Assembly (NCBI GenBank): GCA_012295275.1
Contig: CM022678.1
Coordinates: forward strand, 15,314,001-15,378,000
Origin: Chrysomallon squamiferum
Lineage: Eukaryota > Animalia > Mollusca
Direction of reading: 5' to 3'
Length of the DNA: 64,000 nucleotides
Part shown: positions 27,632 through 30,600 of the stretch, in pieces
How the letters are laid out: each line of letters opens with the position of its first letter
Numbering within the stretch: the first letter of the stretch is position 1
Translations under genes and position numbers: made by a program
Notes under the pieces: generated by a model
Seen by the model: only the letters and a program-made list of their open reading frames with translations
Database searches by the model: none
Told to the model about the DNA's origin: nothing

Positions 27632-30600
27632 ATGTCCAACCAAAGGTATAGCAATCATATCATGCATTAGTTTGAAAATTAATTTTATGCCATTTTATGT
27701 CTGTTTGATTGGGGTCGTGGTCCGACCTGTGTTCTGTGACAGGACGCATTTCGAGGATTTGCATTTATTTTAAACTTGAAACTCTCATTAAAGTTTTAAT
27801 TACTAGATATTTCTATTCATTACTTATTCGCTCGATTTACTACAAAATCACTTTGCTTACTTTTCTATATAATTAAAGTATGAGAACTTACAATTTGTAT
27901 CAACATTAAACGATAAGATAATTATTAGTCCGGTTGGAAGATTGACAGTCCTTGGCACAGCGTGAGTGTCAAAATACCAGTGGTAATAATCAAACATGGG
28001 TTTTAAATTTAATTAATTTTAATAAAAATAATTTTATTTTATTAATCATACTTGTATGTCATTCTTACATATTTTTAAGTATTTAAGTCAAATTATATCT
28101 AGCTATCCAGTATTATGTTTTATTATAGTAATATTAATAATACCAATATAATTAATATTGTGAAATGGTGCACAAAAAAGTGAAAAATATAATCCGAACT
28201 TTTCCATCAAATATTTTGTCATTATATATTTGTTTAATAATAATAATAATAATAATAATAAACATGATTACCATATACAGAACATTTTTTAAACTTCTCT
28301 CTTGCCTTTTTATAAGTTTCAGCAAGGTTCAGTTATTGATACAACCATATAATGATATGAATTTTTCCCTAAACATGTATATTTTTAATAACTCACAATG
28401 TTTTTCTTTGTCAGTGAGTTAGTGAAATTAAGTGATGAAAATCTAGCCAGACAGCCTGATGAGGTTTTTGATATAATTTGTAAAATTGGAAGAGGGTAAG
28501 GCCTTACAGATGAATGCTGCCTCACGAACGTTTGCATGTAGTTTCTTTTTACTTGTTTGCATTTTCTTTTAGTTCCTGCAAAACCAAGGCTGCTGAAAAT
28601 ATTGCTGGCAGATTTCTTTTTTCTTTCTTTATTTACTAATTTTTTTTTTTATATGTTCAGCATTTGACTAACTTTTGAAGACTTTGGGAGTTTGGGTTTT
28701 TATAATTTATGTAAGGTAAATGTTATTTTCTTTTTTTTTAAATTTTGGGCAAAGGTATTAAGTATATAATATTTTCTTTTTTATTTTAATTTATGAAAAT
28801 CAATGACTGCCCTAAAAGATAAATAATATACAAATTTACAGTTATTATTGTAAATGCCTTTATGTTCTCTTGTTAATCAAACTGCTGAATGATTTTTTTC
28901 TGGTTTATGTAATGTAACTCAGCATCATATAATGTGTATTTTATAGTATATGCATATATACATGCACACACAAAAGCAAGCTGGCTTACATTGTATAGAC
29001 TCAGTAACTTTGCATTTGTGTGTTTTATTATTCTATTGTTTCTGAAAAGTAAAAATAAGTAAATTAACTACACGTTTTTGTGAAAAAGGATTTCTGTGAT
29101 ATTTGTTGATTATATTTGTTTAAAAAATATTAAAGTACATTAATTTAAGTTTTGTTATTAGTAAAATACACATATGCTGAGTTTTTTTCAAAACAATTGC
29201 ATGATAATCTCTTGCATTAATATAGGAGTCCATGATCTTTTACTGTGTCTTCTTTGTTGAATTAAAATTTTATATTGCTGATACGTTATGACTTACTTAA
29301 GTTTAGTTACATGTATCTTTAATTCTGTAATCATGATATTAAAATATCTGCATATAAAATTTATTTTATATATATATATATATATATACACACATCCTAC
29401 CTAAATACACATTTCTTAATGATTTTCTTTAAGCTGATTGCATATATCCGAAACTTTAATTCAGTAAACATGGATGTTAAGGATCATAGACTCTTATAGA
29501 AGCATGTTGGAGGTGGCTTCTCATCCCTTTCTGCTCTGACAGCTTCCACAGCAGTGTCCTGTGACTTGAACTCTTTGCTTGCTTTGTTTATGCTTGATAG
29601 TTATGTTTTTGTTATTTGTTAGTGCACGCTTGTACCGGCTGAGTGAGGAATGCCTCACTCGCCCGCCAGACGAAGTGTTCGACATAGTGGGAAAACTGGG
29701 TGAAGGGTAAGGTAGATGTTGAACTGTGATGGTAGTGGTAGTTGTGCTGGTGGGGTTAACACTGTCTGTTAATTGCTTTAGATACTTGTTTTTAACTTTG
29801 TAATGTTTTGTATCTTCTAAAAAAACAAAAAAACATGTATTGTTTTAATTTATTCTTATAGAATCACCATTTAAAAAAAAAAGATTCCTTGTGTAATAAA
29901 AAATATAATGTTTTCTTCTGCTCGGATAACAGTTAGTTTCTTTGTAAAAATGTTCAGTAGAAATAACTATAACATTTTCATAATGTAAAGTGTAACAAAC
30001 ATTTAATTATCTGTCATAAACATCCAGTGGAACACACAGCATGGTAGTCTAAGTGTGACATACAACAATTGCTATTCTTTAGTCTTATTATAAAAGAAAA
30101 GAAAAAATAACAATGAAATCAGTAACTGTTGTCTCCAGTTATGATTTGACATTTGCAATCACTTATTTATTACATATATCTGATTTAAATCTCCCTTTAT
30201 AAAGTTCAGTAAATAGTGTTTATAATGGTAAATTGTTTTGGAAAATAAAAGAAACATTTCCTTTGTCACTATAAAACTGTTTTTGTACTTACTCTGTCTG
30301 CTTTATTATACTACTGATGTTAGCTAGTTTGTTGTTTTACTGTGTATGTGAAATGTATTCTGCACACTGTAATTTTTTTTTACTAATACTTGCATGACAA
30401 ATCTAATTACTGTCACATAGTTCACATATATAATATATATATATTTTTTCCTATATTGTATAACTTGATATTCTTTTTATAATCTATTAAATATTAAATT
30501 TAAATAACTTGAAAAGACATTTTAAATTTTATACAGATCCTTAAACAAATAATAAATAGTTTATTATTATAAATTTTAAATTAGAATGATTAATCTTTTA

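Follow-up and report, generated by a model that had tools for sequence, protein, structure and literature searches.

The Hippo/MST kinase gene of Chrysomallon squamiferum contains two adjacent versions of exon 2, designated 2A and 2B, with Arg (2A) or Glu (2B) as the second residue of the kinase glycine-rich loop. The pair is a deeply conserved tandem duplicated exon substitution, a known type of event, and in Hippo it is apparently real, old, and undescribed. The duplicate is conserved in molluscs and nemerteans, and we consider it probable that a leaky, regulated choice between the two copies gives rise to two kinases, both probably active. As the core kinase of organ-size control, Hippo/MST has been studied mostly in flies and mammals, for which the sequences fetched have a single, Glu-type exon 2; a duplicate retained in snails, clams, and ribbon worms suggests a layer of regulation that is absent from the fly and mammalian models.

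Gene identity and exon structure

The gene is a gastropod Hippo/MST kinase. Within the window (the whole 64-kb stretch of DNA analyzed), the encoded protein is identical to the closest named record, from Gigantopelta aegis, at 476 of 500 columns (95%), and this identity to the relative P0016, together with tblastn, is part of the basis for exons 4–13. P0016 matches human MST2 with an E-value of 2.7e-179 (phmmer) and in a second, C-terminal stretch, which corresponds to the C-terminal part of the MST2 chains 4lgd and 6ao5. P0016 also carries PF11629, which we take to be the SARAH domain, and the last exon of the window is 98% identical to the part of P0016 that matches the MST2 C-terminus. The best fold match to the structure model of P0016 is likewise MST2. 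The N-terminal STE20 kinase domain is nearest to those of MST1/2, as in Hippo/MST1-2 (GCK-II) kinases, and the AIK, HRD, DFG, and APE motifs are all intact in the window frame, within the exons shared by both forms. Human MST1/MST2 (STK4/STK3) and arthropod Hippo, which have the same kinase plus SARAH architecture, are the best sequence and fold matches.

The features of the locus are as follows.

27632–27645, plus strand: exon 1, coding part (ATG, four codons and 2 nt); donor GT at 27646; RNA contigs run from 27533–27554 and splice at 27645
28415–28495, plus strand: exon 2A, 81 nt, Arg-type, ending C-K-I-G-R-G; joints 27645>28415 and 28495>30770
29219–29502, plus strand: possible RNA stem in the 2A–2B intron (arms ~29220–29243 and 29476–29499), −24.9 kcal/mol
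29603–29605, plus strand: in-frame ATG, likely incidental, located within the pyrimidine tract at the acceptor of 2B
29623–29706, plus strand: exon 2B, 84 nt, Glu-type, ending G-K-L-G-E-G; splice sites intact; no joint in four RNA runs
30770–30950, plus strand: exon 3, encoding the remainder of the glycine-rich loop, β2–β3, the catalytic Lys, and αC
31561–31623, 31814–31978, 32558–32663, 33224–33285, and 34141–34278, plus strand: exons 4–8, open frame, GT-AG introns
35508–35618, 36072–36156, 36803–36925, 37565–37773, and 38280–38438, plus strand: exons 9–13, open frame, GT-AG introns

Exons 4–13 (31561–38438) encode the remaining kinase domain, the linker, the SARAH domain, and the stop codon. 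With either 2A or 2B the frame is open over 12 coding exons joined across GT-AG introns, giving proteins of 498 or 499 amino acids, respectively; as the lengths of both exons are multiples of three, the frame is also kept with both exons or with neither.

Exons 2A and 2B are separated by an intron of 1127 nt. Both are bounded by an AG acceptor and a GTAAGG donor, with phase 2-2 borders, and they are thus adjacent homologous exons of the same phase and similar length that encode the same protein region. In these respects (coordinates, lengths of 81 and 84 nt, phase, splice sites, and peptides) a prior sequence-only reading of this DNA, which had proposed two intact, in-phase paralogous exons, was correct. 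Profiles built for each type recover two copies of exon 2 in the window and no more, scoring 74 and 66 bits, against 7.5 bits for the next match. Over 26 aligned codons, the exons share 15 residues, 11 of which are specified by different codons, and differ at the other 11. Their third-position G+C content is also unlike (4 of 25 in 2A vs. 15 of 25 in 2B, p=0.003), which excludes a recent copy or an assembly echo. The duplication had been read as old, with both copies retained in frame, and the codon divergence and the occurrence of both types in relatives agree with this. Extra constraint on the codons of 2A was considered and rejected: the share of identical codons is 0.37–0.61 for 2A and 0.38–0.55 for exon 3, excluding exon-3 pairs with locus L007, which were misaligned by one codon.

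Conservation in molluscs and nemerteans

The two exons occur as separate isoforms in G. aegis, in which isoform X2 contains 2A alone (28 of 28 residues identical to the window) and isoform X1 contains 2B alone (29 of 29). Outside 2B, the window protein differs from G. aegis at 24 of 468 columns, including 6 of ~243 within the kinase region common to both forms, which leaves the shared kinase exons ~97.5% identical. With 29 of 29 residues retained, 2B is as well conserved as the working domain.

We tallied exon types in 48 named species of molluscs, nemerteans, bryozoans, and Priapulus having a record that reaches exon 2; arthropods, echinoderms, and records lacking the exon-2 part were set aside, two Magallana species share two proteins, and no named annelid, brachiopod, or flatworm protein was among those fetched. 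Both exons are found in 28 of the 48 species, all of which are molluscs or nemerteans, and the pair occurs in gastropods and bivalves as well as in the nemerteans Lineus and Tubulanus. In 21 species, 2A-only and 2B-only forms are present as separate isoforms. Another 18 species have 2A only, which may reflect the isoforms fetched, and two have 2B only. The earlier proposal of one gene with two isoforms is therefore upheld through relatives, by these 21 species and the G. aegis isoforms. Splicing of 2B is seen in close relatives only, not in the RNA contigs of C. squamiferum.

The order of the two exons is always A then B (22 proteins, none reversed). As the types were sorted by Arg versus Glu, the invariance of this residue within each type is circular. 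Independent of the sorting rule, Cys precedes Lys in 45 of 46 2A sequences and in none of 30 2B sequences. Sequence identity is 0.87 among 2A exons and 0.81 among 2B exons, as compared with 0.52 between types within a species. Exon borders are the same in genomic fragments, with 2A followed by the donor of the window in L001 and L002, and 2B followed by exon 3 in L008. Among oyster proteins from Logan assemblies, 2B-only forms are found on 38 contigs and 2A-only forms on 27.

The same two exons are present in automatic RefSeq records, as the STK3-like X1/X2 isoforms of Gigantopelta, Haliotis, oysters, scallops, Aplysia, Lineus, and Tubulanus. These isoforms are unnamed and uninterpreted, and we found no paper noting the duplication or the Arg/Glu swap. 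For the buffalo annotation, the accessible text of PMC5737279 states that NCBI variant models needed one long alignment or the RNA-seq reads of one sample. The same support rule is assumed here to apply to the mollusc and nemertean isoform records.

RNA evidence in Chrysomallon squamiferum

Five sequencing runs contain the window stretch, four of which are RNA runs from a single study; the RNA evidence consists of assembled contigs, which drop rare variants. Exons 1, 2A, and 3 are joined in all four RNA runs with no other letters in 2A, which shows that the Arg codon is genuine and expressed. The junctions foreseen from the sequence alone were thus found in part: 27645>28415 and 28495>30770 are present in four of four runs and the 2A>2B joint (28495>29623) is present in none, as expected, but neither 27645>29623 nor 29706>30770 is seen among these contigs. 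That is, no contig from the four runs joins 2B to another exon on either side.

Such a pattern would be expected if, in this species, 2B were a silent relic that had not yet decayed and the Arg kinase alone were made. The 18 species with 2A only point in the same direction, as does the existence of a 2B-free state at locus L007, where exon 3 is preceded by an Arg exon but by none of the 2B type. Yet 2B is unchanged from G. aegis while 24 of 468 other protein columns differ, its splice sites are intact, and contigs from one study would miss a rare variant. We regard a silent 2B as very unlikely.

Unspliced RNA contigs lie near 2B at 29431–29664 in run X1 and at 29404–29618 in run X4. The X1 contig has a depth of 15.2, as compared with 4.4–5.5 for two other intron contigs. 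A gap in X1 cover at 29665–29706, among the pieces listed, was discounted as evidence. These contigs bear on a further suggestion of the sequence-only reading, namely that 2B, with its ATG at 29603, could serve as an alternative first exon; translation would then begin at this ATG under an intronic promoter. The ATG indeed exists in frame, and Lineus isoforms X1/X3 splice another first exon onto 2B. The position of the ATG inside the acceptor pyrimidine tract argues against its use, however, and L008 lacks such an ATG, having an in-frame stop a short way ahead of its 2B. Moreover, 2B-only isoforms, X1 of G. aegis among them, mostly begin with exon 1, other pieces of the intron have RNA cover as well, and contigs cannot show starts. 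The suggestion is not supported for this ATG, and a first-exon role for 2B is highly improbable.

Exon choice

The two exons had been proposed to be mutually exclusive, but the exclusion is apparently not strict: in-frame models with both exons occur in 16 of the 28 two-exon species. RefSeq contains such models for 10 of these 16, and each of the single forms is present as well in 9 of them. The co-included proteins number 22 among the 496 fetched and come from NCBI, UniRef, or nr; they include RefSeq proteins from oysters, Mya, Dreissena, Patella vulgata, and Lineus. In 24 Logan/JGI proteins that were picked by hand and are complete at the N-terminus, co-inclusion is absent (21 with A, 3 with B).

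According to the accessible text of PMC5740500, strict exclusion calls for junctions from each exon to the flanks and for no exon–exon reads unless the frame shifts, and it can be hard-wired by a donor–branch point distance of <50 nt, by a U2/U12 mismatch, or by a frame shift upon joint inclusion; most mutually exclusive clusters are counted there as regulated by other means. None of the hard-wired mechanisms fits the Hippo pair, which has a 1127-nt intron, GT-AG sites with GTAAGG donors, and frame-keeping joint inclusion. A leaky, regulated choice is the best fit, since co-included models occur in 16 of 28 species and no hard mechanism applies. With steric, U12, and frame-shift mechanisms absent, exon choice would rest on splicing factors or RNA structure. 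As to the latter, the best stem in the 2A–2B intron is not significant, with 6 of 93 shuffles reaching −24.9 kcal/mol, and folding of 29440–29800 reveals no structure (z=1.05). The list of inverted repeats contains AT-rich noise only, and comparison of the intron with distant loci gave no convincing similarity, only one 26-nt AT-rich match.

The co-included models could also be taken to mean that 2A is near-constitutive and 2B an add-on cassette, with the main alternative product containing both exons, 2A as a 27-residue N-terminal extension and 2B as the loop. Joint inclusion does keep the frame, and the 22 proteins from 16 species conform to such an arrangement. It is harder to reconcile with the 2B-only isoforms of 21 species, with the separate forms that alone are present among the proteins fetched for G. 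aegis, three Haliotis, Littorina, and Aplysia, or with the 24 Logan/JGI proteins, and 2A retains its own G-x-G start, which would be unneeded in an extension. We judge an add-on cassette unlikely, and gene models that fuse 2A and 2B may be minor or wrong.

In the preferred reading of leaky, regulated choice, 2A would be the default exon and 2B would be restricted to certain tissues or stages. Because 2B adjoins exon 3, any mRNA containing it, with or without 2A, would build the Glu loop, such that the working switch would be the inclusion or omission of 2B. If both exons were included, the product would be a Glu-loop kinase extended by 27 residues.

The glycine-rich loop

The two kinases would differ in their N-terminal helices, in strand β1, and in the second residue of the glycine-rich loop. 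In the structure model, exon 2 forms helices at residues 12–16 and 19–22 and a strand at 23–32 that runs into the glycine-rich loop, with a local pLDDT of 66–78. A single-sequence model of a co-included oyster protein was uninformative (pLDDT 37). The replacement of Glu by Arg in the 2A loop that had been noted beforehand is confirmed (G-R-G in 2A vs. G-E-G in 2B), and the 2A segment as a whole is approximately two charges less acidic than that of 2B. The Arg exon had also been viewed as an odd variant, but it is the commoner form, the one spliced in four of four runs, and the only one seen in several lineages. For the same reasons, the Arg-form kinase is likely to be active.

The specificity determinants of STE20 kinases are KxxN, DFG+1, and the β3–αC loop (accessible text of PMC6445471), and in Hippo these elements lie in shared exons 3 and 5. 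The exon swap would therefore be less likely to affect the phosphosite motif than to tune ATP handling, autophosphorylation, or N-lobe docking. The loop residue is not addressed in the accessible text of two papers on MST structure (PMC2920948 and bioRxiv 2023.10.20.563248), and our literature search on this residue found no description of an Arg/Glu effect. The pair provides a natural minimal swap for probing what the N-terminal helices and the second loop residue do in MST kinases. For work on mollusc growth, regeneration, and aquaculture in which ‘Hippo’ is cloned or knocked down, it means that two N-lobes are involved.

History of the Arg and Glu types

Among the records fetched, four cephalopod species, a chiton, two bryozoans, and Priapulus have the Arg type only. 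The animal locus L007 (233–1906) likewise has only an Arg-type exon 2: the 1036 nt that precede exon 3 contain no exon of the 2B type (best match 3.6 bits). An extra intron splits its exon 3. Glu is found in the fetched arthropod and echinoderm records, in 52 crustacean clusters, in 55 of 55 further proteins, and in human MST1/2; the human chains, the crustacean clusters, and the 55 proteins have one exon-2 peptide with K-L-G-E-G, and no Arg type or duplicate was seen among them.

Echinoderm exons are nearer to 2B (21–22 of 24 residues vs. 15–16 to 2A), the Priapulus exon is nearer to the 2A majority (21 of 24 vs. 17 of 24 to 2B), and arthropod exons are intermediate. On the strength of these similarities, 2B probably resembles the ancestral exon, with 2A being the derived copy. 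Trees built without exon 2 place Priapulus apart from both the molluscs and the spiralian rows, and its sequence is thus not a mollusc or spiralian contaminant. The grouping of Priapulus with spiralians has a support of 28, and the AU test neither supports nor rejects it.

It is conceivable, albeit doubtful, that the Arg/Glu pair is a switch of protostome age, of which arthropods kept Glu only and cephalopods, bryozoans, and other spiralians Arg only, with splicing toggling the output between two kinases. If so, the Hippo form of flies and mammals would be the minor form in molluscs, and the two kinases would differ in activity or partners. One alternative reading is that the Arg type is convergent in priapulids.

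In 138 further representatives, the loop residue is Glu in 102, Arg in 11, and Lys in nine; of the others, 15 gave no match and one proved to be an unrelated repeat protein. The nine with Lys, a third state of the position, are Hippo-like proteins (P0388, P0391, P0392, P0454, P0465, P0466, P0473, P0478, and P0479). Lys is also the residue found here in MST3-type kinases.

Relation to known systems

No description of the Hippo exon-2 duplication was found in the literature searched, which was mostly without subscription journals and excluded supplementary catalogues of duplicated exons. The closest mechanism is that of FYN exons 7A/7B, which specify FynB and FynT (accessible text of PMC9741552 and PMC7352836). 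FYN is a vertebrate tyrosine kinase whose alternative exon also spans the SH2–kinase linker, whereas the Hippo pair belongs to a STE20 kinase, consists of exons of 27–28 residues, has a spiralian range, and includes models with both exons. The closest acidic/basic exon swap is that of the NALCN pore exons, in which EEEE alternates with EKEE/EEKE at a key site in a single invertebrate gene; these exons are conserved in snails and one form has been lost in some lineages (accessible text of PMC3557258). In NALCN the swap affects the selectivity filter of an ion channel and tissue expression was measured, while the Hippo pair affects a kinase loop.

Other features of the locus

Two acceptor regions of the gene are tandemly repeated. 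At 33717–34141, a 93-nt tandem unit (33856–34098), along with less exact copies, reiterates the exon 8 acceptor and the bases that open this exon, giving six copies of the motif with the real site last. At 34840–35510, a 73-nt unit in 9.2 copies (97% match) repeats the exon 9 acceptor, giving nine motif copies, again with the real site last. A partial, degenerate copy of the end of exon 3 is located at 31085–31138 and has an in-frame stop inside. A 27-nt tandem array of ~11 copies (38613–38927) follows the stop codon and is probably part of the 3' UTR. An ATG and a GTAAGG resembling a donor lie on the minus strand (26690–26720, read by eye), ~0.9 kb upstream of exon 1, and possibly belong to the first exon of a divergent gene.
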